61,022 bases of DNA, filler included, from Circinaria calcarea (GCA_051942165.1; 6 parts of 6 records of this genome joined end to end with filler, not necessarily neighbours in it); one strand, 5' to 3'; positions 5,984-50,960 are shown, counted from the whole stretch's first letter. The notes: generated by a model from the sequence alone, not told the origin. Numbers and translations are program-made.

Positions 5984-8118
5984 ATGGTGTTCACAGCACC
6001 AGAATGGGTCCCGGCACTGCCCTTTGAACCCTTCGACTCAATCCCTCTCTGTGACTTCATGCTGGACGAGAGATATGGACGACAGCCCTTGTCGGAATCA
6101 AGACCGCCGTTCACGTGTGGATTGACCGGTAAGGAGTACTCGGCGTTGGAGGTACGAGATCGTGTGGACTGGCTTGCGAGAGGGTTGTCCAAGGAACTGG
6201 GCTGGCAGCCAAACGTCGGTACGGAATGGGACAAAGTCATCGGGGTGTTCAGCTTGAATACGGTAAGATGCGAACCAACGTTGGTGTGAATGAAGGACCG
6301 AGAGAGGTTGACAGAGGCATGGGCGTTGGCTGATGAAACCGTGGGGATAGATTGACACGTTAACGCTCAATTGGGCGACTCACCGTCTTTCTGGCATCTC
6401 CTCACCAGCGAACGCGGCCTATTCGGCGGAGGAACTTTCATTTCAATTGAAGTCATCCGGTTCCAAGGCGTTATTTACGTGTCTCCCATTGTTACCGGTA
6501 GCACTCGATGCGGCGTCAAAGTCCGGAATATCCAAAAATCATATATACCTCCTATCTCTCCCCGCGGAGTTGACCGGTGGTCAAGAAGCTCCTGCGGATA
6601 TCAAGACAGTCGATCAACTGATCGAGAATGGGAGAAAACTTCCCCAACTGGAAGCCCTGAAATGGACAAAGGGTCAGGGAGCCCGGCAAACGGCTTTTCT
6701 ATGTTATTCTAGCGGCACGTCTGGCCTACCGGTATGTCCTTGTGAATCCATCTTTGAACGTGAAGCTAATCGACGGGCTTAATGTAGAAAGGTGTGATGA
6801 TATCCCACCGCAATGTCATCGCCAACGTCCTTCAACTCTCGGCATTTGAGCAGCCCTATAGGGATGCAATGAAGGACCCGAACACGAAATCTAGCTACGT
6901 GGATGTTGCACTGGGACTCCTTCCCCAAAGTCACATCTACTCCCTAGTCGTGGCTTGTCATGCAACTGGTTATCGAGGCGATCAAAACATCAATCTTGCA
7001 AAATTCGAACTGAATACCTTCTTGAATGCCATACAAAGGTTCAAAATCAGTGCACTGTTTCTGGTAAGTTTGCACAAGTCTCGGGTACCTGCAGTGGGAT
7101 ACCTTTTGTGGATGTGTCAAACTTCTGTTGTCGGTCTACCTTTGAGTGGTGAATACTAACAAGCAAGGTTAGGTACCACCAATCATCATTACAATGACAA
7201 AGAATAAAGATACATGTGCCAAATACGACTTGAGTAGCGTCAAGTTTATTTTCAGTGGAGCGGCGCCTCTCGGCGCAGAGACTGCAGAAGGACTTCAGAA
7301 ACAATACCCTGAATGGATTGTTAGACAAGGATACGGTACGGTACAACTGCCAGATTTGTTCTCATCATTCGCTTGCTAATGGTAATGGCAGGCCTTACAG
7401 AAACATGTACCGTAGTCAGCTCAAGTGCCTATGATGATGTTTGTCTCGGTTCATCAGGATCTCTACTTCCCTCGATAGAAGCGCGTCTCGTGACTCCTGA
7501 AGGCGCCGAAATTACCGGCTACGATCAGCCTGGCGAGCTATTGGTCAAATCTCCGACTGTGGTTTTGGGCTATCTCAACAACGATGCAGCGAACGCCGAG
7601 ACCTTTCAAGATGGCTGGATGCGAACAGGAGATGAGGCAGTGTTCAGAAAAGGTCCCAAAGGGACAGAACATGTCTTTATTGTTGACCGAATCAAGGAGC
7701 TTATCAAAGTCAAGGTACGAGAACTCTATCAGTTTACCTTTTTTTTTTGTTTTTGGAAATACAAGCTAAGTTACCTTACAAGGGATTACAAGTGGCCCCC
7801 GCTGAATTGGAGGCTCATCTCCTTACCCACGATGCAGTCGCCGACGTTGCAGTGATACCGATTCCCGATGATGCGGCGGGCGAGGTGCCAAAGGCATTCG
7901 TGGTCAAGTCCTCATCTGTAGGATTGGAGAACAACGATCGCATGATCCAACGTGACATTCAGAAACACGTTGAGAAGCATAAAGCAAGGCATAAGTGGCT
8001 GAAGGGTGGGGTCGAGTTTATCAATGTCATCCCAAAGTCTCCCAGCGGCAAGATTCTTAGAAGACTACTGAGGGACAAGGACAAGGCAGCTAGAAGAATG
8101 ACTGGCGCAAGGTTGTAA
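5984..8118 (+). CDS. Peroxisomal AMP-dependent acyl-CoA ligase (phenylacetyl-CoA / 4-coumarate-CoA ligase-like)
   Basis: Spliced motifs YSSGTSGLPKGV, GWMRTGD, RIKELIKVKG, QVAPAELE, IPKSPSGKILRR; C-terminal PTS1 ARL; first intron 6263-6350. Confidence 0.93.
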
Positions 8119-8679
8119 TTATCCGAACATTTCTAGAGCCATTAGGGTGTTGGGTAGTCCAACAGTAGATTTCGGGATAGTAAATATCTATAGAGGAGTC
8201 TTTTTCTGTAAGACCATGGCACGGATGATAATAAACAGCAGATTCTGTCGGCGAGTATCGATCTTAGTCTATGAGTTATGGTAATTGTGGAGATTAAGGG
8301 ATAGGACTCCATTTAAACATATTACTCTTCCTTGGTAACTACCACTGTAGCATTGTCTTACAAGCATCGGCTTTGAGAGCCTATAGTTCTATAAAATACT
8401 CCACATATAAATAACTCGTACGAGTATTCTGAGTGACTTGACCCTTCGATTGCCACTGTTGTTTTCAGCCTCGAATCCAGGGCCAAGCCCTAATCGTGAA
8501 GCCCTTATCGAGCTGTAGGGCTGATCCTTGTCATGCAGGATGACGAAATGAATTGGAGAAATAATCGCCGCAAATGTTTGGATTTCTAAGCTGTAAGATA
8601 CAACTTTTTGGACATTTATATCCCATTCTCTCGGGTGAGTTTACTCTTTCCTCAGCATTTTCTGGCTACAATATCCACA

Positions 8680-10104
8680 ATGGATTCATCACATTCCCCA
8701 CAAAATGTTGAAGAGCTACCGGAAGAGGAGGATGCGATGTTAGATGCCAGCGAGGCTGCAGAGGAAATACCTTCCGATCCAGATCAACCCATGGACTCTG
8801 ATCCCGAAGACGCCGAAGAACAAGAAATACAACTCCAGAATGATTCAATTGCGCACTTCGATCATCACACCGACTCGATCTTCTGCATATCTCAGCATCC
8901 ACTCGATTCCTCAATAGTAGCCACCGGTTCGGGCGACGATACAGCATACGTCTTCTCCGCCAATGTCCCTTCTCCTCTCCTCCCTACATCGTACGAGTCG
9001 AATCCCAAGACATCGCGCGAATCCCTTGCACCGATAGCCAAACTTACCGGCCATACCGATTCCGTCAACGCTATAACCTTTACTCTACCCCAAGGCGCAT
9101 ATCTTTGCACTGCCGGTCTTGACGGTCGTCTTCGCGCCTACAGTACACCTTCTCCTCCATCTCTGACTGATTCCAGATACACCTTTCTTGCCGAAACCCA
9201 AGAAGTCCCCGAAATTAATTGCCTCGTTCCCTGTCCTCACCCATCTTATCCAAATACCCTTGCCCTAGGAGCTTCAGACGGAAGTGTTTGGGTTTATACA
9301 ATCGACCCGTCAGATGCGGCTTCGCCCCTACAAGTACAGCAAGCATACTACCTTCATACTGCATCCTGTACGGCAGGCGCATGGACACCAGATGGAAAAC
9401 TGCTGGCGACAGTCAGTGAAGACGGGAGTCTTTATGTCTGGGACCCATTCGGTGAAGCTGCCGCCTCAGGCGTCACCGTTCCGGGAGCAGGTCAAGCTGT
9501 CATCGGTCTCACAGCTTCAGACCAACGCTTCACAATCGAAGGTGGGCTTTACAGTGTCGCCGTCGCTCCCTCGGGCACGTTCGTCGTTGTTGGTGGCGCA
9601 AATGGCATGATTCGCGTTGTAGGTCTTCCCATCCTCAACTCCTCCTCCTCCGCCACGAATAGTAGCAATGCCACAAAGAGCCAAAAAGGCAGCGGCGCCA
9701 AGTCCAAAGCCGCAGGTGGAAAACGGCATCCAGCATCCGCCGTAGAATCAAGCGCCGGCCAAGCAGGTCAAATCCTCGCCAGTCTCCAAGCACAAACCGA
9801 CGGTATCGAAACCCTCGCGTTTGCCGTCCCTCCCCTTACTCTCCTTGCCGCAGGAAGCGTAGACGGCAGCATTGCTCTCTTCGACACCGCACACCGCTTT
9901 GCCATCCGGCGACATATCCGCGACGCACACGAAGAGTACGCAGTCGTCAAAATCGAGTTTTCAAAGGAAGCAGGAAAAGGTTGGCTGCTCACCAGCTGCG
10001 GAATGGATGGCGTGGTCCGAAGATGGGATACCCGGGGCGGAACGACGGCGAGTGGGATGGGCCTGGTGGGAGAGTGGAAGGGACATCGGGGGGAAGGGGA
10101 AGGG
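8680..10104 (+). CDS. SQT1: WD40 ribosome assembly chaperone Sqt1/AAMP (truncated by contig end)
   Basis: Acidic N-terminus, then NDSIAHFDHHTDSIFCI, ATGSGDD, GHTDSV, SCTAGAWTPDGK, GSVDGSI, CGMDGVVRRWD, WKGH, typical of fungal Sqt1. Confidence 0.85.
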
Positions 10105-10204
10105 NNNNNNNNNNNNNNNNNNNNNNNNNNNNNNNNNNNNNNNNNNNNTTAATTAATTAANNNNNNNNNNNNNNNNNNNNNNNNNNNNNNNNNNNNNNNN
10201 NNNN
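10105..10204. other. Artificial contig linker
   Basis: N44-TTAATTAATTAA-N44; stop codons in all six frames. Confidence 0.99.
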
Positions 10205-10215
10205 GGAAATGTTCT

Positions 10216-12762
10216 TCACTGTGACCGAGGTGGAGTGAGGAGACGTAGAAGCTCTTGACTGTGTTTGTCGCTGATCCGCTCCTGAGTTTTGCAGACTTGA
10301 AATTTGGAGATGCGAGCTTTCCGTACACCCTGTAGCGGCGCCAACTTGGATGGGTCAGGGTGACGAAGTTGAGGTCTCTTGGTCTTTTTGGTTTCCTTGA
10401 CACCGGCAGGTGTTGCTTCGGGGGCCGGTCCGTTGATATGGTGTAGCGAACCAGAGATGCTTGGTGATAGTGGCTTCTGTTCGCTTAATCTGGTCGTACT
10501 GTCCTTTGTAGCTCGTCGCTGTCTTTTCTTGGGGGGTTTCTTTTCGCTTCGCTTCACAATACCTTGCGGTCTTTGGCCTGGACTTCTGGTTGTTTCAGGT
10601 GTCTTTCTCTTGGACCGAAGCCTACCCGACCAAATTGACTTTGGAGTTGCCGTTTCTACTTCTGTGCTAGCCTCTCGAGACTGCAGCTGAGACATCTCAG
10701 ATGGCTCACCATGGATGCACAACTGATTTCCTGATTTGGAGACAGGATTTAGCCTAGGTATGACTGAACAAGCTTTCCCATCAACCACGTCCGCGGTCGT
10801 CGCACTCGATTGGTCTGTTATAGATGTCGTGCTCTCTTGACACGATATGGAATCGATGCTTTCGCTATCTGTAGAATCAGAGTGTGAAGGTCGGCCTATC
10901 CAGCTCATGTTTCCTTCGCCATTAGGGAGCAAGCTCTCCTTTATTGCCAAATCCGTACTTTGTGTCTTCTCAACCGTTTCTCCTGAATTAGCATCTGGAT
11001 TGGGTTGTGATGCAGTTCGGGAAACTTCTGTCGAGGACTTGTCGTGCTTTGACTTCCTCCAGCGTGCCATTCTCATTATCATTTCATCTTCCGTTTCCTC
11101 CGGCCTAAGAAAATCATAATCCTGCCACACAATGTCCAATTCGTTCATCAGAAACTGCGGAAAGGGCGTGTCTGATGCAGAGGGCTCGACATCAGCATTG
11201 AGTATTGCTTCCTTCCAGCGCGTAATTTCGATGAATTCTCTCTTACAATACTCCTTTGAGTTTCTGCTGAACTGAAACTCCTTTGAGTTTCTGCTTTGCT
11301 GAAACTCCACCGTTAACGCTTGGACTCTTTGGCTCAAGTAATCCGGCCAGTACTTCCCACGCAACTTGGCTTTAGGATCTGGCCATTGAGGTGATGGCGG
11401 TGTTCTTTCCCCATTGACGAGCCCGCAATCCCTCCAGAAGTCTACTAACTTCTGCATCTTCTTCTCCGTTTCTAGCAAATCTGCCATGTAATGTCTGTTT
11501 CCGCATCGAATCGCGTCCCGGTCCAGTGCGTCTAACTCATCCATTAAATCTGACGGCCAGGTTCTGTAAATCGAAAGTGGGTCGTCTGCTAGTATTGCAT
11601 CTGGATTTTTGTTCTGCCAGCGACGGATCGCATCACTTCGTTTGACCTTTGCTTTTTCGTACTCCTGAGCATAATACTCGTCTCCTCTCTCGTTGGCTAG
11701 CTCACGCAGTCCGTGGAGTCCTTTAACCAGGTAGCGTGGGAAGAGCGTACCAGAGGGACTTCTGCCCATATCCTTGAGTAGGTGTAGGTCCGGTAAGGGT
11801 GCCAGCTCTATATCATATACTTTTTCCCAATGGTCTGCAGCATCTTCTAGTTCTTTTTTATATAACTTATCGGTGCGCTTTCCTAGTCGGCATCTCAATT
11901 GACTCTGCATCTCGTTTATGTAGTTTAGTTGACTCGAGAACCAGCTTGCAGGGGGTGGCTGAACCACATAGGAACTTTCCTTTACTGGTGACTTGGCCCA
12001 TTCCATCCATGGGTGACGATATTTACGCAGCGTGAAATTGTCAGATGGCTTCAGCTCTTGGAGCCGACTGATTAGTTCTTCCGGCTCAATATAGCCACGT
12101 TTCAAACTACGGGCCTTGAGGTAACCCATCTCAGCCGGTGAAGCGTTTTCATGGAAAGATAGGCACTGAGATTTGTCGTGGTAGTAGTGTGGTGACCGTA
12201 ATCCCTCGGTCTTCAAGTTGCCAGCGAATGCTCTCATGAATCTGGCATTCGGGGTCATCTTCTCGCTGCCCGCATCTTTCTTGTCGTTCCGGTCTGCAAT
12301 ACGCATCTCACCTTTGATGTGATACCATAGTGGAATCTCTGCACCTCCCATTGTGTCCTTCCACAGCTCGACCACCTTGTCCCGATCGTCTATATTGATG
12401 TAGTGTCGTAGAGGCTCTAAACCCTTAAATTTGAAATGAGCTACAAACGCTGTCACGGGTCTGGCCTGCTTCATCTCTGGGGTCATCTTCTCGCTATCCG
12501 TATATTTCGTGTCGCTCCCGACTGCAGGTAGTGCAGAATTATGAACCCGACCTTGCGGAGAGTCAGGACCCAGACCCAGTATTTGATGCCGTGGTGGAAT
12601 CGTTGTGTCTCCCATTATCCTTTTCCAGAAATCATAACCCTCATATTTCAAAATCTCTTTCGCGTTATCAGATGTTGCAACATTATGGGCCCGATCTTGA
12701 ACGCTGTTAATCATTTGGTCTTGTGGTTGGTATGGTGATGATCGAATTATTGTTTCGTCCAT
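10216..12762 (-). CDS. Hypothetical 848-aa single-exon protein with internal helical repeats and a basic low-complexity C-terminus
   Basis: 2.5-kb uninterrupted ORF, ATG in good context (CACAATG); no family motif recognised. Confidence 0.8.
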   Translation of the reverse strand: MDETIIRSSPYQPQDQMINSVQDRAHNVATSDNAKEILKYEGYDFWKRIMGDTTIPPRHQILGLGPDSPQGRVHNSALPAVGSDTKYTDSEKMTPEMKQARPVTAFVAHFKFKGLEPLRHYINIDDRDKVVELWKDTMGGAEIPLWYHIKGEMRIADRNDKKDAGSEKMTPNARFMRAFAGNLKTEGLRSPHYYHDKSQCLSFHENASPAEMGYLKARSLKRGYIEPEELISRLQELKPSDNFTLRKYRHPWMEWAKSPVKESSYVVQPPPASWFSSQLNYINEMQSQLRCRLGKRTDKLYKKELEDAADHWEKVYDIELAPLPDLHLLKDMGRSPSGTLFPRYLVKGLHGLRELANERGDEYYAQEYEKAKVKRSDAIRRWQNKNPDAILADDPLSIYRTWPSDLMDELDALDRDAIRCGNRHYMADLLETEKKMQKLVDFWRDCGLVNGERTPPSPQWPDPKAKLRGKYWPDYLSQRVQALTVEFQQSRNSKEFQFSRNSKEYCKREFIEITRWKEAILNADVEPSASDTPFPQFLMNELDIVWQDYDFLRPEETEDEMIMRMARWRKSKHDKSSTEVSRTASQPNPDANSGETVEKTQSTDLAIKESLLPNGEGNMSWIGRPSHSDSTDSESIDSISCQESTTSITDQSSATTADVVDGKACSVIPRLNPVSKSGNQLCIHGEPSEMSQLQSREASTEVETATPKSIWSGRLRSKRKTPETTRSPGQRPQGIVKRSEKKPPKKRQRRATKDSTTRLSEQKPLSPSISGSLHHINGPAPEATPAGVKETKKTKRPQLRHPDPSKLAPLQGVRKARISKFQVCKTQERISDKHSQELLRLLTPPRSQ

Positions 12763-20302: not shown

Positions 20303-20402
20303 NNNNNNNNNNNNNNNNNNNNNNNNNNNNNNNNNNNNNNNNNNNNTTAATTAATTAANNNNNNNNNNNNNNNNNNNNNNNNNNNNNNNNNNNNNNNNNN
20401 NN
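20303..20402. other. Artificial contig linker
   Basis: N44-TTAATTAATTAA-N44. Confidence 0.99.
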
Positions 20403-21253
20403 AATGTTGGCAGGGGGAATGAACTCAGCACAGGTGACCCACGAACAATACGTTCGGTCGGGCGTGTTCCACTCAATTGACTTCGCCTGGAATATTGTTA
20501 CAAACTCTTTGGTAAAGAATACATTCGCGCTCGCAATTGGTATTGGTCGTTGACAACATCGAGGAGGGAACAGAGACTCGTCACGAGTCGCCAAGAAGAA
20601 TAGCTGTCTGATACAGTTGCTGCAGTAGTCATGTCCGCAAGGGGCGTACACCGCCGCGAAGAAGGCCACTTGCTCGCTGCAAGAAACACAAGTTTTCTTA
20701 ACGCCAATAACTACGTCTTCTTCTTTTAGTGCACGTATTCGCCTGAGCTCTTGACCCAGTGTAAGTCGTGGTCTTGGGTTTAACTCGACCGGGGGAGCTG
20801 TCGTGGTGTTCAAGCTTGCAAAACGGCCCATGATGAAATCATTTGTCTCGTCCGTAAGGTCAATGACAGGAGCTGCTATCGGTGCATCTCGACAGCCTCC
20901 TATGCGTAAGGCTTCTCTCCGATCGTTGATAGCTATGTTCTCTTCTCTTCGAGCTTGCCAGAGAGCTTCACCGTCAATTTGAACAGCAGACGCAATGCTG
21001 CGTCCGAGGCGTGCATCTCGAAGAGCTCGTAGTCGTCTTATGAGTTCGTTGCGATAGGCGATGAGTGCTATGTAGCCATCCGGCGGAGTTGTTCGATTCT
21101 TGCCCTCTTTTGGCACGTCAAGGATGGCGTTCAGGTCCTATTTGTCCCATTTAGGAGTGGATTGAACCGAGGAGGGCAAGCCGCGTAGGTGATATGAGAG
21201 CTGCTTACCTTCAATTGCAGGGAGAGAACGAGGTCCGCACTAGCATCATCCAT
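20403..21253 (-). CDS. RBR (RING-IBR-RING) E3 ubiquitin ligase, 5' part (truncated by contig end)
   Basis: MDDASADLVLSLQLK / intron 21138-21208 / DLNA...; RING1 CVSC..APCGHDYCSNC..ESLFPPRCC; IBR start RTYCSWVTCAEFIPP. Confidence 0.9.
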
Positions 21254-21357
21254 CGGGGCACTTGTGAATCTGTGTTGATGATTTCAATTGGTTAGGTCAT
21301 CAAGGTGAATCAGAATCAGATGTAAACTTAAGCGAAGAAAACCCTAACTTGGGGTCC

Positions 21358-22034
21358 CACTGTATGCACACCCCAATTACCCTAACTACACAACCTGATA
21401 AAGCAATAAAGTCTTTTTTTATTTTTTTTAGAGGTATATCGAGGGTCAGGGTCAGTGCTACACGTGATCGGGGACAGAATTAAAATCGTTTATTCCGTGC
21501 CAAGAACAGTTGCAACAAAGCAATATACCATATTTCGGGTCCAGGTCAGCGAGCGACATGTGAAAGGTTCTCGAAAAACCTAAAAAATCAGCGAAATTTC
21601 CACGTCGCGGCGCATCTTTTTTTATATAGATGTAACAATAAAGCTTCTAAAATCACTAAAATTTACATGCCAAAATCATGGATTTCGGGCGTGAAATGAA
21701 AATCGATTTTTTTTTAGGATTACGCCCGTATGGTAGGACTAGAAATTTTACGCTTCCGTAGATTATATACTACACTGCAACTACTTTCACGACTGTTATA
21801 TCACTGATTTCCAGCCTCAAACCATGTAAAGAAAGGATTTTATTTGAGCCATATTTTAAATTGATAGCGGATTTATAAGCGGCGTCATTTTTAATGTATT
21901 TTAATCACATACGAGCGAGGTATATTGATATATAACACGTTTCTCTAAACCACTAATTTTATTGACTAATCGGAGGGTGTGTAGCTATGGTAATTGGGGT
22001 GTGCTTGCAGGTACTAGGGGGTATGCACACAGTG
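21358..22034. mobile_element. Non-autonomous DNA transposon (677 bp) with CAC...GTG termini
   Basis: Ends CACTGTATGCACACCCC and revcomp CACTGTGTGCATACCCC match 15/17; inner inverted block 21366-21395 vs 21975-22004 matches 27/30; AT-rich non-coding interior. Confidence 0.8.
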
Positions 22035-22159
22035 AACCCGCTAACTTGCAAGTCTGGTCTAATCGGTCAATACAGGTGCATTATTAGCTCTCTCAGGAAT
22101 TATCGCAACAGATATTGTCTTTTCAAGACATTTATGACTCTCGCTGACCATCTGACAGG

Positions 22160-23321
22160 TTATACCTCAGTAAAGTCCAGACCTCCGGCATCAAAGTCCA
22201 ACTTCATAGACTCATTCAGTCCACAAATCTCAAACAGCTTCAATGGTGTCAAGTCCTTGCCAGTCCCAACTACCCCCTCACGTTTGAGTCTCTCGAATGT
22301 ATTTCTGATGGCAGTGTAAGCTGGAGCCAGCGCTGCAAATGAAAAGATCATGATCTTGAAGCCAAAGTCACGCGCTTCATCCACTGTGATGACCGGGGTG
22401 GCTCCGTTCTCAACCATGTTAAGCAACAGAGGCCACGGTGCCAAATCGATGACGGCCAACCTAGCCATTTCCTTCGAGGTATAGCCCTCGAGCAATCCGA
22501 CATCGGCACCCAAATCTCTCGCAGCTTTGAGACGATTGATACACTCCTGGTATCCGAGTGTCTGGAGTGCGTCGGTACGGGCGATAATGACGATATCCGA
22601 CTTTAGCTTGTTTTTGGCACCAACAGCAGCTCGTATGCGGGAGAGGAATGTCGCCGCATCAACTACCTTCTTTCCCTTGAGATGACCACATCGCTTGGTT
22701 TGAACCTGGTCTTCAATGTGAAAGCCAGCAACACCGGCACGAATATACTGCTGGACAGAGTTGGCAACCATGATCGGACCTTGGAAGTGTCAACAGGTCG
22801 TCTTGTTACTATGCATGAGTGAAAAGGAAGGGTTATCTTACCACCGTAACCAGTGTCCATGTCCGCAATAAGAGGCGGGCCATGAGGGTCCAGGTTGGCA
22901 ATCATCTCAGCATGCTCCCTCATGTCGTGCAGCTGAGCGATTCCCAGATCTGCCATCCCCAAGCGTGAGGCTGTGGTACCGGCACCCGTCTAACCACTCA
23001 GATGTCAACAAGAATTCCAGCTGTAACGAGAGAAGACCATACCATGTATAATGCCGAGAACCCTACAGAAAGAGCGATTCGTGCTGAGAAGCCGTCGTAC
23101 ACGCCTGGACAGACGATCAAGTTGTCTTCCTTCAAGAGCCGCTGAAGCTTGGTCGATCCAGAGATGGCAGCTTCATGGGTGTAAGACTTCGTTGCCTCTT
23201 GGATGGCAACTTGAGGGGTGTGACCGTTGGGTTTAGCATTAACGTGTGTCTTGGTGAGACCATTGCCGTTGGTATAGCTCATGGTGTCATTGTTCTCGAT
23301 CTGTGCAATTGAAGGAGTCAT
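22160..23321 (-). CDS. oahA: Oxaloacetate acetylhydrolase (PEP mutase / isocitrate lyase superfamily)
   Basis: PGVYDG, YMTGAG, IADMDTGYGG, HIEDQVQTKRCGHL, IIARTDA, LLNMVENG; MIFSFAALAPAY carries the Ser typical of OAH (Pro in 2,3-dimethylmalate lyase); two introns. Confidence 0.88.
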
Positions 23322-23712
23322 CTTGAGCCAATATTGTGGGGAAAGGGTCATGTAAATAGTGGTAGGGGAAAGAGTCTCGATGCCAGGGGCTTTGTAGATA
23401 TGAAAGCTGTGAAGAAGGAGAATCTTACAGACTTGAGCGGGACTTATATATTTTGAAAATACCACCCCCCTTTACAGTCACCTACCTGTGAATGACTTCA
23501 ATGCATACGGACTTCTCCGTCGATCTCGCTATGCTAACTCTTAGGTGGCTTCTCATCCATCCTATACTACCGTATGCAGATGATTCCATCTAATTCACTC
23601 CACCCAAATCTTCATTCATTTGCTTTGTCCCACCCATCCCGACTTTTCTCGATCCCTAGGGGATTCTCTGAACCACCCCCCTAAGCGCTCTGCACCGAGA
23701 AATGCTCGGAGG

Positions 23713-23793
23713 AGCCGAGATCCTTCCTGGGGAAGCCGATATCCTTCCCTGGGGAAGCCAAGATCCTTCCTGGGGAAGCCAAGCTCCTTCCTG
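23713..23793 (+). repeat. About 3.8 copies of a 21-bp tandem repeat in the oahA upstream region
   Basis: Unit approximately TCCTTCCTGGGGAAGCCRAGA, read directly from the sequence. Confidence 0.9.
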
Positions 23794-24089
23794 AATAATG
23801 CAAATCCGATTGGCAGGCACTGTCGTCTAATCCGAGCCGTTTCTGTAGTACTTTGAGTCCGAATCGCAATGTCTCTACTGAATCACGCGTTCAAACCCCA
23901 CGGATTGTTTGCCAAGGTGTGATCGTCTGATGCTTGCCAAGGTGATTGCCACCACGGTATCCACTCTAAGGACCTTGCCAAGAAGAGCCACTAGGAAGTG
24001 CTTATCATGTTGGTGTCTCTCCTGCATAATGACTTCAGCAAACGCCGTGCATGGGGAGGTCAGCCATATGGATTTTCACATGGGCCAGG
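23757..24089 (+). promoter_or_regulatory. Cluster of PacC consensus sites (GCCARG)
   Basis: GCCAAG at 23757, 23778, 23911, 23936, 23977; GCCAGG at 24084. Confidence 0.7.
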
Positions 24090-26022
24090 CCATTCGTCGA
24101 GGTATCAGCTCGAAATGGAGGAGGAGGAACGCCTTCTACAAAGTACGGCGGTCAGGAAATTTATAGTTTGCTTGCAGTATCAAACCCAAGTGTCAAAGGG
24201 CCACTCATCTAAATTAGTTCCGAGGCTGACATCCTTATTCTGCGGGTTTCCAGTAACACACGTTTTCGTGTGCTCTGTGCTCTTTGCTCTTGTGCATTGT
24301 ACGACGTTTTTCCCCAGAGGTATGATCGATGCAGCAGCCAACTGCAGGCCTGAGCGTTGAGCAGCATGACCGCGTCTGCATTGTTGGGGTTCGGATTTGT
24401 GCCCTTGCCATAGGAGGTGCTGTCCTTGCTGTTCTCCCACCACTGCAGCTTCAGGGTTCGGCGCCTCATTCCGAAGCGTGATGGCTTGGGCTCAAGCAGA
24501 TAAGATTACGGTAGCATTGTAGAAGGCCAGGTGGATGCAAGCGCGGTCGAACGGAAGAGCAGAATGTTCTAGTGCATTGGAAGTAGCCATTCGATTGCAG
24601 AATCCGGAGACAGTCGTATGCAGGAGGGTACTTTTTCTGTGTATGTTGAGTACCACAATGGAGTATCTGATGGATGTTTGATGTGCCCTCTGCAGCAATT
24701 GCTGTCGTAGATCATGTCAAAAGTGTGACGACCAATAAGCCCCTCCCACCCCCATCTCGCTCGGCTGACCTCGTACGTCATCCCACTTTCCGAGCATCTC
24801 CACGATATGGAATCATGCTGGTAGAACAGTATGTCGGATACAGACGTTTATGCTTGACGCCTTCAAGCCTTTGTGTAACGCTGGAGGAACCAATGGGAAT
24901 CTAGCATCTTGGAGCGGTCCGGTCCGCAAGCTTCCTCTACAATGGCGTAAGAGTGCCCTGAGGCTAGGCTGATGCCTCGAATACCCGCTGTCGTTGTTAG
25001 ACGTGAAGGCGTACCCACCGGGTGTGGCATGGCATGGCGTCACGTTCGAGACAAAAGACTGCTTCCTCCCGAATTAACCGTTGCTCGCTAACTCTCCAAT
25101 TGACGAAGCTAGTCTGTCTGTCTCACACCGCCTGGAATATACAATTAGGGCATTTCGCTAAATGGGTTGGTTATCGGAGGATGATTGTGGGCGCGGAATC
25201 AGTGTGACCCAGCCAATGCGCACCCTGCAGGGAGAAGTGGCCCTGGCCTACCTTAGCTTTACATCGGAGCTATATGCTGTTGGTGAACCTTTCCTGACCA
25301 ATAGAGTTCATGTCAGCGTCGAGGCACCGCCCCCTGGTCCTTACGGCATCAGGCTTAGGGTACCGGTACCGGCCTCCCGTACATATCAAAACCTACTACA
25401 CCGTACGGTGCAGCGAAATTTAGCCAAATGCCCTAAATATCCTCCCTGTACGGAGTTCATCAAAGCGGACAGTTCTCCGTTGAATCATGCCGCCAACTGC
25501 AGCCAGCGCAGATCAACCATCCACAAACCCACCTTATCTCTCCTTCCTCCCTCCTCCCGGATGGGATGTCAATCCCCCCCAACCGTCTCGGCACGGGTAG
25601 CACTGCAGGTTCGATACTGCCAAGACCGCCAGGCCGCTACTGCGGTAAGACTAGTCTAGTTAACCGAATATCCACGAGCCACACCATTCTGGCTCGAATC
25701 TCGAGTGGGGGTTGAGCACGGGTCGAGGACTGGTTGAGGGTGGAATGATCAGGGTCAGGAGAGAATCTCTTGCTTTATCTGTGTATTTGTGTTCCCGCTT
25801 TCGAGGCGGTTTGCGTGCTCGAAAGCTGAAGATCCACGCTTACCGGGTACGACATCATCGGAGTCCGATCATCGCCTGACTAGTCGCCCTTTTGACATGG
25901 ACTATATATCCAGAATCCCGTTGTCAAGCACTCTCTCTACCGCACTTTGCACCCTCTTCCGTGCTTCATACTTTTACTCTTTGTCAATCAGACCACTACC
26001 GGCCCATTGAACGGACCGAGGC

Positions 26023-27385
26023 ATGGAGCAGGCAATTGACAAAGAGATAGGTGAGATAGGTCGAACAGCAGAGTCTTCGCTGGATCGAGAACGAGGAGAT
26101 ATCGGGCCCACACCACAGAATGATCGCCTTGGAGTCCGGCTGAGGAAACATCTTGCGGCCGAAGTCAGCAAGGAGCACACGGATATCTTGATGTTGACAT
26201 GTTGCTTCATTTCAGGCTTGCTCGATAGCGTGGTTTACAGCGGTATGTTGGCACCCGGCTACCCCCGTTCCGTCTTTGCAACTTCTCCTCCTCTGTTGTC
26301 TTCGTTATTGCAATTCGCTTCCGTTCGCTTTCCCGCTCGATGCCAAGTGCATGGTCAATAGGCCGGGAACCTTTCAGGGAGGAAGCCGCATCACAAGTAT
26401 GAAAAGAACATTGTTTTGTGTCAAATATTACTTGGCGATGAAGGAGCAGCGGATTACCTATCCAACGGTCTTCTCCTGGGTGCGTTCCCCTTGGATTTTG
26501 TCTGATCGCTCATTTAATCACTTTGGGCTCTTGCAAAGATCTACATGTATCTCCGAGACCCATAGCTGTCAATCTCAACAGCGCTGTTCTGCACTCCCGT
26601 ACGCACCATATACTGACCTCCTTCCCGAATAGCCTACGGTACCTTCGTATCCATGCAAACCGGTAAGCCGCGTCCCCACCACAAAACCTCAACTTACCCA
26701 ACTAAATCACAACCTAGGCAATACTATTTTCGTCGGCCTTGGTGCTTCAGGTCAAAACGCTAATAAACCCTTTGGCTGGGCCAAGTCCCTTACCTCGATA
26801 TTCTGCTTTATCCTCGGCTCCTTCTTCTTCTCCCGCTACTGCCGACTCTTGGGACCGCTCCGGCGCTCGACCCTCTTCTCTTCGTTCCTCATCCAGGTAA
26901 GATTATCCATAGCAGCTACTCATATCGGTTGACACTTAGTTCTGATCTATTACTTGTAGGCCGTTTTCATTATTGTATCGGCTGCTCTAGTTGAAGTCGG
27001 GACCATCGACGGAGAAGTTAATGTGGCCTTCCGAACGATCATGTGGCTCGAAGAAATCCCTATTGCAATGCTTTCGTTCCAGTCCGCCGGACAGATGGTC
27101 ACGAGTCGGAACCTAGGATTGAACGAAATCCCAACCGTCGTATTAACCAGTGTCTTGTGTGACTTTGCAAGCGACCCGGGGTTGGGAAAGAAGGACAATG
27201 TACGGCGAAATAGGAGAGCCCTTGCTTTCGTGTTGATTCTGGTTGGGGCCATTGTGGGCGGATGGATCGCGAAAGCGTTGGGCGGCATGGAAAGTGTGAT
27301 GTGGATTGCGGGGGGAATCAAGCTGTTAATCACCATTGCATGGGTACTTTGGCCGCAGATGCCGCAGCTCGCCATACCTATCTAG
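26023..27385 (+). CDS. DUF1275 (YoaK-like) multi-pass membrane protein; candidate oxalate exporter
   Basis: Exons 26023-26242, 26633-26662, 26718-26896, 26960-27385 give CFISGLLDSVVYSAYGTFVSMQTGNTIFVGLG ... LSFQSAGQ ... EIPTVVLTS ... GAIVGG; about six hydrophobic segments. Confidence 0.87.
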
Positions 27386-28302
27386 ATGAGGTTATGGCGT
27401 TTTCAAGATATTTGGCGTATAGATTGCCAGTGACTTTGGATAGCATTAGATAATTATGAATGAGATTTTTGGCTCATGGAATTACAGCGGTCTTGGTATC
27501 CCCTTTATGATATTCGTTGTAGGATGCGGGCAGGCATATCGCTATCATTTCAAATCGCTACTGCAAAACCGACTTGCCTCTATCAAGGACAATAGGTGTA
27601 GACAACCGTCCGGAAGTCAGCAAAGCGGAAAGTCCTAAAGTACTTTTTCTTTTAAAAAATATTCCCTTTGAAATATTCTGGTTTGAATCGGACTGATGTT
27701 CTCGCCCAGGGCTACGATGAACCCCGTGCTCCGGTTTATCCGGCGCTGGTAAAGGGACAGTAGTGGCGGATAAGAGGAGGAGGGAGTTATAAGGAGCGGG
27801 CAGGGGGTCACGCAGCTTGACTTTGCGACCTGAATTTCCCGCAGCCGTAGTTACTGAGCTTCCAGCCTAGGATTCGGGTACCGGACCACTAATGTTGGAG
27901 GAGTCCTACAAATCCAGAGGGGGTTGCAAACTTTTTGGTTAAGCGCGTGGGGGTTTTCTCGTGCGCTTTCCCTACAGTACCTAGTCGCTGTAACCCTATG
28001 CAGAGAGGGACTATGCTATGGAGGGTAACTTGGTTGATTGGTGGTTGCTAAGTCTAAGTGGTGGGGAAGACTAAATATGGGCAGGTGCTGACTAAGCTCC
28101 ACGTCGCATCCGGCATTGTTTATTTCATATATATTTTTCGTATGAACCGGAAAACCATACCGAGTGATGAACATGTAAGCCAAGAGATCTAGATTCGCAT
28201 AGACGACTGACGCAAACTTGAACTCGCCCCACGGCAGCGACAACCACGATAATTATCAGAGAGGAGAAAGATTTGTTCCTCATTGATCCTCCGTTCGCCA
28301 GA

Positions 28303-29943
28303 ATGCCCACAGCCTTTTCCCGCCCCCTGATAACCAAGGCCCTTATCTCATCCTTCTCCGCGCTCTCGCTCTATCTTCTGTACAAACCCACGTCATCATC
28401 CCACGCGACCAAACCCCAAAATCACATCCCTTCCCCTCTGAAGACCCTTCTTCCCTCCCTTTCACCCTCTGAAATCAAAAACCTCCCCTATCCTCCAGAT
28501 ATCTTCCCCGGAGCGAGAGACATGGAGAGCCCGTACGGCAGTCTGAGGGTTTATGAATGGGGCCCGCCGGAGGGAAGGAAGGTCTTACTGGTTCATGGCA
28601 TTAGTACTATGTGCGTCAGTCTTGGTGAGTGGAAAATTCGGATATTCATGGAATAAAGATAAGAAACGAGATTGAGAAAGGCTGGGCTAGGGTTGATGCT
28701 GACTTTTGGTGGGGGGCATCCAGGCAGTTTAGCAGAAGAGCTAGCGGCGAAGGGATGTAGGGTCATGCTCCTTGGTATGTCACATCGATTTTGTCGAGGT
28801 CCGGCTAGTATACCTGGAGAATATCTTGTTGAGAGTGTTTGGGGGTTCTATGGTTCACCCCGCATTCTCCACACTTATGAGATTATAATCATTGTAGACT
28901 TGAGTGTCACAAGCGTCACCCTAAATTTCTGACTTTGTTGATATTACCTATCGCTTACTAGCCAATTTCTCGCTTTTTTGTAATATTTCTATATCCTTTT
29001 GGCTGTTCTGGGTGCCCTGAATGACAACACGTAACCATTTCCCCAGAGCCACATTAACCTGAACCTAGATCTTTGGGGCCGGGGTTGGAGTGATACACCG
29101 CTTTCGCTACCACATGACACACGCCTATATACAACCGCCATACTCCTGGCCGTGACTTCCTCTCCCATACCTTGGACAAGTTTCTCCCTGGTTGGATATT
29201 CCCTTGGTGGAGGCATCGCCGCATCCTTCACTTCCTTCTTCCCAAACCTTGTCGATTCCCTGGTCCTCATAGCGCCAGGAGGTCTCATTCGACCGCATCA
29301 TTTCAATCGCTTCAATAAACTACTATACTCGACGAGTCTCGTCCCAGAGTGGATTCTAGGTTGGCTAGCCAGGAGGAAATTGAGCGGAAACACAGCTTCA
29401 ACCCCAGCGACGTCAGAGGATGCGGATGCACCAGTTGCTGGCGAGATACCGCCTAGAAAGGATACTTTCAGCGCTGCGGTGTTGTCAAAACGACGGCCGG
29501 AAATGACTGTCGCAAAAGCCGTGGTAAGTATCTCTTCCTTATGGCTGTCTCTCGTTATGGTGCTAGAGTAGGCTGAACCGTTATTATCACCGTAGGCTTG
29601 GCAGCTTCAATATCACCAAGGTTTCATTTTGTCCTACACGTCCAGCATTCGTTACGGTCCTATTAGCACACAGCACGAGGAGTGGAGACGGATCAGCAGA
29701 CAGCTTGCTGCCCAGAAATCTTGCATCGGAAACCTAGACGAAAAGCCTCATAGCGATAAGGTCCTCATAGTCTGCGGAAGAAGTGACCCGATCATAAACG
29801 TGGAAGAGCTGATGGAAGATGCCAAGGAAACCTTAGGGCCCGAGAACGTGCGATTCGAGGTTTGCGATGCTGGGCATGATCTTCCAATTACAAAATCACA
29901 GGAGATTGTGTCGCATATATGGAAGTTTTGGGAGTCCAAGTAA
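28303..29943 (+). CDS. Alpha/beta-fold hydrolase with N-terminal membrane anchor
   Basis: LLVHG, DLWGRGWSD, nucleophile elbow GYSLGG, GRSDPII (acid), DAGHDLP (His); four introns. Confidence 0.9.
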
Positions 29944-30496
29944 TCACTTCGCCAGGTTAAGACGTTGCCTTGCAAAGCGTGAAGGCCAACATGCAACTGT
30001 TGAATATTTTGGCATGTTGCAATGTCCGCGAACGTGGAGTCACTGGAGTGTACGCTTTCTTCTTTCTTCCCACTTTAGCGCATTCCTCGAGTGGTACTTA
30101 GCACACAACCCTAACTAAATGCGGCAAGCAGGAGTGCTTTACTTTCGAAATCGGTTTCCTAAACATTGTCAGTAAGACATAGGGAAAGTCGGTGTCAATC
30201 CCCAGATGGTTTTTCTTGTTCATCTATCTTTGTGCTCGCTATGTCTCTTACTAAAGATTTCGAGCTGCAAACGGGCTGTGATATTCTTGCTTTGTTCTAC
30301 TGCCTACCCCATTTTTTTTATGACATGTATAGCTGCCTTCATGGACATTCTTTACAACCTTGTACATAGCTTTGCACTTACATGTTATCAACAGAAACGA
30401 TGTTTTGACAATTCTAGTCCTCCTCTCGTCATAATTAACACATGTCATATCTGCTCGCACCTGGCTCTACCCTATCCTACCCAAGCAGCAAAAAAT

Positions 30497-30596
30497 NNNN
30501 NNNNNNNNNNNNNNNNNNNNNNNNNNNNNNNNNNNNNNNNTTAATTAATTAANNNNNNNNNNNNNNNNNNNNNNNNNNNNNNNNNNNNNNNNNNNN
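30497..30596. other. Artificial contig linker
   Basis: N44-TTAATTAATTAA-N44. Confidence 0.99.
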
Positions 30597-40684: not shown

Positions 40685-40784
40685 NNNNNNNNNNNNNNNN
40701 NNNNNNNNNNNNNNNNNNNNNNNNNNNNTTAATTAATTAANNNNNNNNNNNNNNNNNNNNNNNNNNNNNNNNNNNNNNNNNNNN
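40685..40784. other. Artificial contig linker
   Basis: N44-TTAATTAATTAA-N44. Confidence 0.99.
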
Positions 40785-50860: not shown

Positions 50861-50960
50861 NNNNNNNNNNNNNNNNNNNNNNNNNNNNNNNNNNNNNNNN
50901 NNNNTTAATTAATTAANNNNNNNNNNNNNNNNNNNNNNNNNNNNNNNNNNNNNNNNNNNN
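50861..50960. other. Artificial contig linker
   Basis: N44-TTAATTAATTAA-N44. Confidence 0.99.

Follow-up and report, generated by a model that had tools for sequence, protein, structure and literature searches.

Fungal OAH cleaves oxaloacetate into oxalate and acetate in equal amounts, and the placement of an acid-forming enzyme beside a co-regulated membrane carrier has what we take to be a "make and export" analogue in the itaconate cluster of Aspergillus (cadA, mttA, and mfsA). Among proteins that move oxalate itself, OxlT of Oxalobacter formigenes (PDB 8HPJ) is an oxalate:formate antiporter of the MFS, a single 12-helix chain that acts as an importer, and the oxalate exporters available to an engineering study of 2026 were limited to FpOAR, HbOT1, and HbOT2 (PMC12960930). 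FpOAR of Fomitopsis palustris provides oxalate efflux from an oxalate-secreting fungus, which is the function that we propose here for a DUF1275 protein encoded beside OAH, and the accessible parts of PMC9738940 and PMC10003554 report no linkage of FpOAR to an oxalate-forming enzyme. FpOAR and this DUF1275 protein resemble each other in length, and each is a small membrane protein with several helices. The DUF1275 / YoaK family (PF06912; TCDB 9.B.143) has no assigned function (PMC7778945; PMC12316277, a 2025 paper), and TCDB places it as a distant 6-TMS member of the MFS (PMC7778945, PMC8154325). In Acetobacter aceti, DUF1275 adjoins oxalate-handling enzymes in a uctB-oxc-uctC-duf1275 region (PMC3720670), which serves oxalate catabolism, in contrast to the biosynthesis served by the pair described below.

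This pair was found in a Circinaria calcarea MAG, within a 61,022-nucleotide stretch of DNA (the window) that is a chain of ~10.1-kb contigs with N-run joins around TTAATTAATTAA. Because the N-linkers join unrelated contigs, the DNA beyond the one contig that bears both genes (Table 1) is not genomic context of the pair; the longest contig for the deposited protein P0001 (Circinaria calcarea Q9187_004363) is 10094. The sequence-only reading had described an OAH with the diagnostic Ser and an intact four-exon DUF1275 gene, transcribed outward from a 2.7-kb region of the same contig, and each part of this description held: the OAH gene is intact with three exons and has the Ser marker, the spliced DUF1275 product is letter-for-letter P0001 with 136.8 bits against PF06912, and the two genes diverge head-to-head from a 2,671-bp spacer. 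Compared with the Aspergillus itaconate cluster, the Circinaria pair comprises just two genes in head-to-head arrangement, and its carrier is half-size and belongs to an uncharacterised family.

Table 1. Features of the OAH and DUF1275 pair of Circinaria calcarea (positions counted from the first letter of the window)
Feature	Position	Strand	Details
Single contig bearing the pair	20403..30496	.	10,094 bp; N-linkers on both sides are joins to unrelated contigs
OAH gene	22160..23351	-	Intact, three exons; introns GT..AG; product 358 aa
OAH exon 3 and stop codon	22160..22779	-	KRCGH loop, Ser marker (IMIFSFAALAP); 3lye_A residues 102-305, E 1.1e-85
OAH exon 2 (TGAGTTASRLG...DMDTGYG)	22842..22989	-	3lye_A residues 52-100, E 6.7e-23
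OAH exon 1	23043..23351	-	Residues 60-103 on 3lye_A residues 7-51, E 4.5e-11
Shared spacer, candidate bidirectional pH-responsive promoter	23352..26022	.	2,671 bp, ATG-to-ATG
DUF1275 gene	26023..27385	+	Intact, four exons; product 284 aa
DUF1275 exon 1	26023..26242	+	Low-confidence N-terminal tail, first membrane helix
DUF1275 exon 2, 30-nt micro-exon (AYGTFVSMQTG)	26633..26662	+	Spliced product equals P0001
DUF1275 exon 3 (NTIFVGLG motif, helices 2-3)	26718..26896	+	PF06912 at 2.1e-5, exon alone
DUF1275 exon 4 and stop codon (EIPTVVLTSVL..D motif, last helices)	26960..27385	+	PF06912 at 6.4e-19; 100% identical to P0001

Judged by its sequence, the window enzyme is a Ser-type OAH. Its three exons tile the solved Cryphonectria parasitica OAH (3lye_A) gap-free, and the product is collinear with fungal OAH (A. 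niger OahA; C. parasitica OAH, PDB 3LYE/3M0J) across the whole solved chain, with ~59 extra N-terminal residues ahead of the aligned core; the first ATG is at 23351 and another possible one at 23321. Three segments (TKRCGHL, HIEDQ, and DMDTGYG) align with and are identical to the solved OAH, the Ser marker, KRCGH loop, EDQ, and DMDTGYGG motifs are all kept, and exon 3 carries a PEP_mutase/ICL-type domain (PF13714 at 3.2e-20, PF00463 at 8.8e-11). The 2,3-dimethylmalate lyase of A. niger (3FA3) and other Pro-type paralogues belong to the same superfamily and are close in sequence (E 6.7e-82), but the marker column is Pro in 3FA3 (IIIFPFAALGP) and Ser in the window enzyme, as in 3LYE (IMIFSFATLAP). 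This Ser was reportedly found by Joosten et al. in 2008 to separate OAH from dimethylmalate lyase and other superfamily members, and when 240 retrieved homologues were sorted by a motif pattern, 227 had Ser and one had Pro, with 12 unmatched by the pattern.

The pair is conserved across distant taxa and is restricted to Ser-type OAH and one DUF1275 clade. Scanning metagenomes with exon 3 of OAH as query yielded 52 loci, half of which (26, L001-L026) were fungal and OAH-like at 57-80% identity, with Ser (10), Pro (14), or Leu (2) at the marker. When all 52 loci were searched by tblastn with 101 DUF1275 proteins, matches were confined to L001-L008, i.e., eight of the ten Ser-type loci, and there were none in the 14 Pro-type loci (eight of them with at least 4.5 kb of upstream sequence), the 2 Leu-type loci, or the 26 distant loci. 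Wherever a metagenomic locus has a close Ser-type OAH (all eight cases), DUF1275 is upstream on the opposite strand, head-to-head, across spacers of 1.3-4.1 kb. Two couples (L002/L003 and L006/L007) are duplicates, and the linked loci are therefore six distinct ones; the nearest named OAHs are from Pleopsidium, Dirinaria, Hymenoscyphus, and Penicillium, which represent different classes. The neighbor of a divergent Ser-type OAH-like gene (L020/L021) is a full MFS gene and not DUF1275.

Among named genomes, the two genes have adjacent locus tags in Sclerophora amabilis (M1837_004385, DUF1275; M1837_004386, OAH), where their contigs are also equal in length, and in A. niger (ATCC64974_63780, OAH, SPB48756.1; ATCC64974_63790, DUF1275, SPB48757.1; PMC8224569 Table 2). 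The pair thus occurs in these two genomes besides the six distinct foreign loci, and it is head-to-head wherever its orientation is readable. The proteins P0021 and P0104 have an ENA contig size of 195,930 bp in common, and in Pleopsidium flavum a linked-clade DUF1275 and OAH are on separate MAG contigs, both of them short (11.9 and 5.5 kb). The guess that similar linkage exists elsewhere is thus borne out by the six distinct metagenomic loci, S. amabilis, and A. niger, and no report of the pair was found in the literature searched. The sequence-only reading had also proposed a synteny check across Aspergillus, Sclerotiniaceae, and lichen fungi, of which the Aspergillus (A. niger) and lichen parts were covered, with the pair found again in both; our survey was made up of the loci from the metagenome scan together with Sclerophora, A. 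niger, and a single ENA contig. Of the 108 rows in a DUF1275 tree, 47 form one clade (SH-aLRT 97) that contains all 9 rows of the linked set, a placement that leaves out the A. niger copy. Eight Eurotiales DUF1275 rows lie on a contig other than that of their own species' OAH, and every one of them belongs to a second clade, of 57 rows; the paralogue clade is Eurotiales-only and unlinked to OAH. Compared with the organic-acid clusters of Aspergillus, the OAH and DUF1275 pair is conserved far past one genus.

Several features of the shared spacer and of published expression data suggest co-regulation, as had been guessed from the window alone. No Pfam family was found in the ten stop-to-stop ORFs of at least 90 aa in the window spacer, and none reached the Pfam cut-off among 30 ORFs in four foreign spacers. 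The motif GCCARG, which we take to be the PacC consensus, occurs at 11 sites in the window spacer (23382, 23757, 23778, 23911, 23936, 23977, 24084, 24526, 25242, 25619, and 25628) against 3.6 +/- 1.9 in dinucleotide shuffles, of which 1 in 500 reaches 11, these counts being consensus matches and not binding. No other 2,671-bp stretch in the window is as dense in GCCARG as the spacer; enrichment for the motif is seen in 5 of 7 spacers (0-1 of 500 dinucleotide shuffles reach the observed count), and GCCAAGA, one of just two 7-mers common to all seven, is present in each. These patterns make the spacer a candidate bidirectional pH-responsive promoter. In A. niger, deletion of citT more than doubled secreted oxalate and raised 27 of 11,187 genes on both carbon sources, with OAH (log2FC 2.02/1.93) and, more weakly, DUF1275 (0.91/1.26) among them (PMC8224569). 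The expression comparison is this one published A. niger contrast, in which the chance that OAH's immediate neighbor would be in the 27-gene list is, by our estimate, ~0.5%. Deletion of pac1 in Sclerotinia leads to less oxalate (PMC7168625).

P0001 matches PF06912 over its full length (1e-39, cut-off 25.4 bits, profile positions 1-192 of 193); besides this family, the Pfam search gave just a sub-threshold match to MarC, and the MFS profile PF07690 had no match. An AF2 model (pLDDT 84.8, pTM 0.80) has long helices at residues 53-75, 103-128, 133-156, 172-194, 205-219, 224-250, and 254-273, i.e., the six- to seven-helix, half-MFS form of the DUF1275 / YoaK family, with one six-helix domain where a canonical MFS chain has two. 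By VIA-align, residues 48-284 superpose on one six-helix MFS half (Z 10.2-14.3), although the program itself cautions that helical bundles in general may give a Z of about 13, and Foldseek returned no match at E <= 0.001. The C-terminal six-helix domain of OxlT (8hpj_A) superposes on residues 49-284 (Z 13.2, rmsd 4.3, 174 aligned) at 12% identity and with no detectable sequence similarity; OxlT is one 12-helix chain, whereas the DUF1275 protein is a six-helix unit predicted to form a homodimer. The dimer prediction (ipSAE 0.83, vs 0.00 for the best of three controls) supports self-pairing: 21 of 30 solved one-chain pairs and 0 of 23 solved single chains from microbes attained the ipSAE mark; for eukaryotes the numbers were 17 of 29 pairs and 0 of 30 single chains, but just 1 of 7 where no older solved relative existed. 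Contact agreement between runs was at least 92%, partner pLDDT was at least 79, and the predicted interface includes the invariant residues D68, R193, and D211. No oxalate-specific signature was found among the conserved charged residues of the linked clade, as these are common to linked and unlinked clades.

Several alternative readings of the DUF1275 partner were weighed. The suggestion that FpOAR belongs to DUF1275 did not survive: in two studies, FpOAR (BAJ10704.1) as a BLASTP query retrieved plant proteins that were aligned to it, and these homologues (AtOT, HbOT1, and HbOT2) carry a SNARE_assoc domain (PMC9738940, PMC10003554), which, to the extent that homologues can tell, places FpOAR in a different family. 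We rejected SNARE_assoc (DedA-type) membership for P0001, which had no SNARE_assoc match in the Pfam search at E <= 0.01 and matches PF06912 only. The argument for export by homology therefore falls, and it is extremely improbable that the window protein is an FpOAR homologue and exports oxalate for that reason. Nor is the DUF1275 family generally tied to oxalate. It adjoins the oxalate gene oxc in 1 of 17 oxc-bearing alphaproteobacterial genomes; within the family of that genome (G071; gene order CoA:oxalate CoA-transferase, DUF1275, oxc), G071 itself is the only one of 126 oxc-bearing genomes with the adjacency among the DUF1275 matches listed. With ~0.1 adjacencies expected by chance, we regard this case as an anecdote, and bacterial adjacency to oxc is sporadic. 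DUF1275 is also reported next to amidohydrolases (PMC12316277), and in Azospirillum it adjoins an amidohydrolase and a Na+/H+ antiporter. Such varied, unrelated contexts, the density of PacC-type sites in the spacers, and the modest induction in A. niger would suit a pair that is merely co-regulated by pH, with DUF1275 serving anion or pH homeostasis or protection from oxalate toxicity instead of being the oxalate export route. We consider this unlikely, as the linkage is found with Ser-type OAH and in none of the 14 Pro-type paralogue loci, and it involves one DUF1275 clade only; nothing would keep a general pH gene next to OAH in Lecanoromycetes, Coniocybomycetes, and Eurotiales alike.

The substrate could also be acetate, another small carboxylate, or the protons that accompany OAH activity, moved as the other product or for charge balance. 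OAH makes acetate and oxalate in equal amount, the transporter-like fold does not point to a substrate, and both bacterial cases (A. aceti, PMC3720670; G071) have an acetate-releasing CoA:oxalate CoA-transferase as neighbor. Against this, A. niger builds up no acetate while secreting oxalate and its acetyl-CoA synthase rises (PMC8224569), which suggests that acetate is re-used in the cell. This alternative is quite unlikely in our judgment. It also bears on the choice of substrate that carriers for acetate are already known in fungi, whereas we know of none for oxalate in ascomycetes. The adjacency might, finally, be inherited synteny without a functional tie, or a chance neighbor, as the variable spacers (1.3-4.1 kb) and the separate Pleopsidium contigs could suggest. 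The same pair in six distinct foreign loci and two named genomes, with closest named OAHs from different classes, together with the joint presence of both genes in the short A. niger list, makes this very improbable. The best explanation is that the two genes are an ancient pair in filamentous ascomycetes, arranged head-to-head and co-regulated.

Oxalate export is the best-supported function of the DUF1275 partner, and we give it about an even chance of being right, based on the conserved linkage, the A. niger co-induction, the transporter-like fold, and the lack of another ascomycete exporter known to us. As the same pairing with OAH recurs across distant moulds and lichens, the DUF1275 protein is the best current candidate for the ascomycete oxalate exporter. 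In the mechanism that we propose, OAH would convert cytosolic oxaloacetate to oxalate and acetate, and its partner, a one-clade DUF1275 membrane protein whose six helices are modeled in the fold of an MFS half, would self-pair to give a 12-helix unit, with the family's conserved motifs at the predicted interface. The dimer may then move the OAH-made oxalate out of the cytosol, most likely via the plasma membrane. The shared spacer would drive both genes under the pH regulator PacC, and such control would agree with oxalate secretion being pH-dependent. The fungal clade linked to OAH would be the first member of the DUF1275 / YoaK family with a proposed substrate and, if this is true, DUF1275 export in the calcicolous lichen Circinaria would feed calcium-oxalate deposition.

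The linker TTAATTAATTAA, flanked by N-runs, recurs at window positions 10105-10204, 20303-20402, 30497-30596, 40685-40784, and 50861-50960 with a spacing of ~10.1 kb, so the window consists of about six distinct MAG contigs joined end to end, and two genes with a linker between them are not genomic neighbours. The pair studied here, an oxaloacetate acetylhydrolase (OAH) gene and a DUF1275 gene, lies entirely within a single contig (window 20403-30496; 10,094 bp) of Circinaria calcarea, a lichen-forming ascomycete, known for its calcium-oxalate deposits, that grows as crusts on limestone. Only two other coding signals were seen on this contig (see table).

Coordinates of the features on the contig with the OAH-DUF1275 pair (window positions)
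Feature	Position	Strand	Remarks
Cys-rich ORF, RBR/IBR-type E3 ligase fragment-like	20403-21137	-	contig start; judged by eye only
OAH exons	23351-23043, 22989-22842, 22779-22160	-	358 aa; introns canonical GT..AG
PacC-type sites within short local repeats	23757-23790, 23911-23990		
DUF1275 exons	26023-26242, 26633-26662, 26718-26896, 26960-27385	+	284 aa
Alpha/beta-hydrolase gene	28222-29940	+	PF00561 at 3.7e-9; downstream of DUF1275

The three OAH exons tile residues 7-51, 52-100, and 102-305 of the solved Cryphonectria parasitica OAH (3lye_A), with exon 3 matching it at E 1.1e-85, and the motifs TKRCGHL and HIEDQ (exon 3) and DMDTGYGG (across exons 2 and 3) are kept. The marker column holds a serine (IMIFSFAALAP), as in OAH 3LYE and unlike the solved structure 3FA3 of the A. 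niger dimethylmalate lyase, which has a proline there; Joosten et al. (2008) reportedly gave this serine as a sign of OAH, a rule checked here against these two solved structures only. The OAH with a diagnostic serine that the sequence-only reading had recognized was thus borne out, both by the motif and by collinearity with 3lye_A. Its description of an intact four-exon DUF1275 gene, divergent from OAH across a 2.7-kb region of one contig, was confirmed to the base: 2,671 bp separate the two start codons, the second DUF1275 exon is a 30-nt micro-exon, and the spliced product is identical to the C. calcarea protein P0001 (Q9187_004363), which matches PF06912 with 136.8 bits. No Pfam match was found among the 10 ORFs of at least 90 aa in the spacer between the start codons.

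With OAH exon 3 as the query, a scan of JGI metagenome contigs (10-kb flanks) yielded 259 stretches matching a pattern and 52 confirmed loci, half of which (L001-L026) are fungal OAH-like loci with 57-80% identity, while the remaining 26 are distant. The marker residue in the fungal set is Ser at 10 loci, Pro at 14, and Leu at two. When 101 DUF1275 proteins were searched against the 52 loci (tblastn), a DUF1275 gene was confined to L001-L008, exactly the eight Ser-type loci nearest the window's OAH (69-80% identity), and in each it lies upstream of OAH and on the other strand, the arrangement seen in the window. Two pairs are duplicates (L002/L003 and L006/L007), which leaves six distinct linked loci with spacers of ~1.85, 2.1, 3.5, 4.1, 1.39, and 1.3 kb; the Pfam cut-off was reached by none of 30 ORFs of at least 80 aa in four foreign spacers. 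The nearest named OAHs are from Pleopsidium (L001), Dirinaria (L002), Hymenoscyphus (L004), and Penicillium hispanicum and P. antarcticum (L006, L008), so that the pair occurs in lichen-forming classes, in Eurotiales, and in a lineage resembling Helotiales. No DUF1275 gene was detected by tblastn at any of the 14 Pro-type loci, eight of which have at least 4.5 kb of upstream sequence.

Lichen-like contigs (L009, L012, L024, and other Pro-type loci) have a near paralogue of the Pro type (68-69% identical, FRxMIFPFAALAPA), and some of these fungi probably possess both OAH and a dimethylmalate-lyase-like enzyme. The Leu-type copies (L023:7195-7813 and L026:535-1152), 75-89% identical to lichen OAHs, comprise the last OAH exon only, contain frame breaks, and look like pseudogene fragments; no DUF1275 gene was found near either. 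L020 and L021, probably one locus seen twice, are Ser-type and divergent (59% identical to exon 3 of the window's OAH), with no DUF1275 gene in the 4.5 kb upstream or the 10 kb downstream. At L021:1-5612, a full MFS_1 transporter gene and NRPS condensation and PP-binding domains lie immediately upstream of the OAH-like gene, which may supply oxalate within a secondary-metabolite cluster instead of being a canonical oahA.

Named genomes gave further instances of the pair. Sclerophora amabilis carries DUF1275 and OAH under successive tags (M1837_004385 and M1837_004386; contig of 183,937 bp), another DUF1275 protein (P0021) and an OAH (P0104) have the same ENA contig size of 195,930 bp, and in A. 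niger N402 the OAH ATCC64974_63780 (SPB48756.1) is followed by the “DUF1275 domain protein” ATCC64974_63790 (SPB48757.1) (PMC8224569, Table 2 and discussion). That such linkage might be conserved had been raised as a possibility from the sequence alone, and the six distinct metagenome loci, S. amabilis, and the neighbouring A. niger tags bear this out. The listed DUF1275 and OAH are on contigs of different size in eight Eurotiales species, and on separate short MAG contigs in Pleopsidium flavum. A quick IQ-TREE phylogeny of 108 DUF1275 rows (the 101 proteins, six sequences taken from the loci, and an outgroup from bacteria; A. niger ATCC64974_63790 is not among them) placed all nine rows with known linkage, together with the window's protein, in one 47-row clade (SH-aLRT 97), which also takes in lichen proteins and a Penicillium set including one P. 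oxalicum protein, and in which Pleopsidium is the only unlinked row. All eight unlinked Eurotiales rows fell into a 57-row clade of Eurotiales only (support 92), and linkage is therefore a trait of one orthologue group. We rejected the reading that Eurotiales lack the linkage, as their eight unlinked DUF1275 proteins form a separate paralogue clade in the tree.

We also considered whether the two genes share regulation. The hexamer GCCARG, which we take to be the PacC consensus, occurs 11 times in the window's spacer as putative sites (i.e., consensus matches) versus 3.6 ± 1.9 in dinucleotide shuffles, 1 of 500 of which reaches 11, and no other stretch of 2,671 bp in the window holds this motif as densely. 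The foreign spacers contain 9, 9, 13, and 8 consensus matches (0/500 shuffles each) and 4 and 5 (34/500 and 116/500), and an unbiased scan found only two 7-mers common to all seven spacers, one of which is GCCAAGA. In Sclerotinia, oxalate is lower on loss of pac1 (PMC7168625). The PacC-type sites of the window's spacer include some within short local repeats (GAAGCCAAGxTCC twice; TTGCCAAGGTG twice, then CTTGCCAAGAAG), which suggests tandem duplication of a putative PacC binding module upstream of OAH, and L001 has seven PacC-type sites 379-463 bp upstream of OAH at a spacing of 12-24 bp. Expression data come from the A. niger citT deletant, in which secreted oxalate rose more than twofold and 27 of 11,187 genes were up on both glucose and citrate, with log2 fold changes of 2.02 and 1.93 for OAH and 0.91 and 1.26 for its DUF1275 neighbour (PMC8224569). 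The 27-gene list (Table 2 there) also includes ATCC64974_63760, a “purine nucleoside permease” two tags from oahA, and the co-induced neighbourhood in A. niger may be larger than two genes; the authors of PMC8224569 pass over the DUF1275 gene without comment.

The AF2 model of the DUF1275 protein, built from an alignment of 65 of 101 homologues hand-picked against redundancy, had a pLDDT of 84.8 and a pTM of 0.80. Foldseek against the PDB returned no match at E <= 0.001, and the rows listed at E 0.019-0.14 were MFS transporters, bar one without a protein name in its title. VIA-align (48,161 chains) matched residues 48-284 to a single six-helix half of MFS proteins with Z 10.2-14.3, where Z below ~13 can reflect a common helical arrangement; rank 1 was a chain of the CatSper complex, and the OxlT C-domain (8hpj_A) aligned at Z 13.2 (rmsd 4.3, 174 aligned). 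Folded as two copies, the protein reached an ipSAE of 0.83 versus 0.00 for the best of three controls, with at least 92% of contacts in agreement among runs and a partner pLDDT of at least 79. The ipSAE mark is reached by 21 of 30 microbial proteins solved as pairs of one chain and 0 of 23 single chains, and for eukaryotes by 17 of 29 pairs (only 1 of the 7 without an older solved relative) and 0 of 30 single chains. These predictions support a DUF1275 protein that pairs with itself. The predicted interface consists of conserved family motifs, including the invariant D68, R193, and D211, which are common to the unlinked clade and thus uninformative on substrate. Members of the family (TC 9.B.143) occur in all three domains of life. 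TCDB describes it as an uncharacterised 6-TMS family distantly related to the MFS (PMC7778945, PMC8154325), and a 2025 paper gives its function as unidentified (PMC12316277).

The suggestion in the sequence-only reading that FpOAR, the oxalate efflux protein of Fomitopsis palustris, belongs to DUF1275 proved wrong. In PMC10003554 and PMC9738940, FpOAR as a BLASTP query led to the plant proteins AtOT, HbOT1, and HbOT2, which all carry SNARE_assoc and were aligned with FpOAR, and a Pfam search found no SNARE_assoc match in P0001; membership of FpOAR in DUF1275 was rejected on the domain content of these homologues, rather than on the FpOAR sequence itself.

A general tie between DUF1275 and oxalate in bacteria was also rejected. 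An A. aceti “uctB-oxc-uctC-duf1275” region has been named (PMC3720670), with oxc encoding oxalyl-CoA decarboxylase. An oxc gene over the cut-off was present in 18 of 401 alphaproteobacterial genomes, and DUF1275 in four of the 17 searched for it (unpublished G242 was left out), adjoining oxc in genome G071 only. There, DUF1275 and oxc share a strand, with DUF1275 1.5 kb upstream of oxc and downstream of a CoA:oxalate CoA-transferase gene that is also on this strand. This stretch of G071 (L135, G071:C13:261000-277000, ~4629-10232), which reads CoA:oxalate CoA-transferase, DUF1275, an unassigned 1.4 kb, and oxalyl-CoA decarboxylase on one strand, resembles the A. aceti region. Across the family of G071, oxc was found in 126 and DUF1275 in 133 of 201 genomes (the alphaproteobacterial and family tallies together take in unpublished G242, G542, and G560, of which the G071 adjacency is independent). 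Among the matches listed, with 12 DUF1275 matches outside, the two genes adjoin in G071 only, and 10 other genomes with both on one contig have them 69 kb to ~1.3 Mb apart. Adjacency in one genome across both samples is an anecdote, with no support for a family-wide role. A tblastn search of plasmids with P0001 gave seven weak bacterial matches, including Azospirillum (L054) and Sinorhizobium (L053), and no oxalate gene was among the 15 annotated features around the Azospirillum match, while the Sinorhizobium stretch carries no annotation; the fungal DUF1275 alignment, used to scan genome contigs, found no relative.

The adjacency of OAH and DUF1275 could be neutral synteny, a reading under which conserved head-to-head pairing across distant classes, without a functional tie, would be hard to explain. 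The pairing is conserved, and it is restricted to one enzyme type, the oxalate-forming one, and to a single DUF1275 clade, which argues for such a tie, as do the co-induction in A. niger and the transporter-like fold. Oxalate export is the simplest role, since oxalate must leave the cytosol, we know of no ascomycete protein that exports it, and acetate is reportedly re-used inside the cell. We infer the substrate, the direction of transport, and the cell location, and judge the chances that the OAH-linked DUF1275 protein exports oxalate to be about even. The partner might instead handle acetate or protons, and the re-use of acetate, reported in PMC8224569, speaks against the acetate role. It might also serve the pH programme in a role unrelated to oxalate flux.

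The fuller form of the oxalate-export reading, which we hold tentatively and at a little under an even chance, is that the linked-clade DUF1275 protein is the missing oxalate exporter of filamentous ascomycetes. OAH and DUF1275 would be switched on together from a shared PacC-responsive promoter, and DUF1275, as a homodimeric “half-MFS” carrier, would carry oxalate out of the cytosol. The OAH enzyme has been known for decades. The oxalate exporters tried in a 2026 engineering study were only FpOAR, a basidiomycete protein, and HbOT1 and HbOT2, plant proteins, all borrowed by engineers (PMC12960930). A search of a literature library with few subscription journals found no published account of the OAH-DUF1275 pair or of fungal DUF1275 function.

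In lichens, secreted oxalate drives the weathering of minerals and calcium-oxalate crusts; in Aspergillus fermentations it is a product, sometimes wanted and sometimes not; and its part in several plant diseases is recognised. A membrane partner of OAH that is both conserved and co-induced offers a concrete gene for functional study, and the conserved pair needs an explanation even if oxalate export fails. If true, our proposal would provide the first substrate assignment for DUF1275/TC 9.B.143 and a natural case of a half-size MFS-like carrier acting as a homodimer, as well as the export step behind calcium-oxalate deposition in lichens, oxalate formation in industrial Aspergillus, and probably also acidification by plant-rotting fungi.
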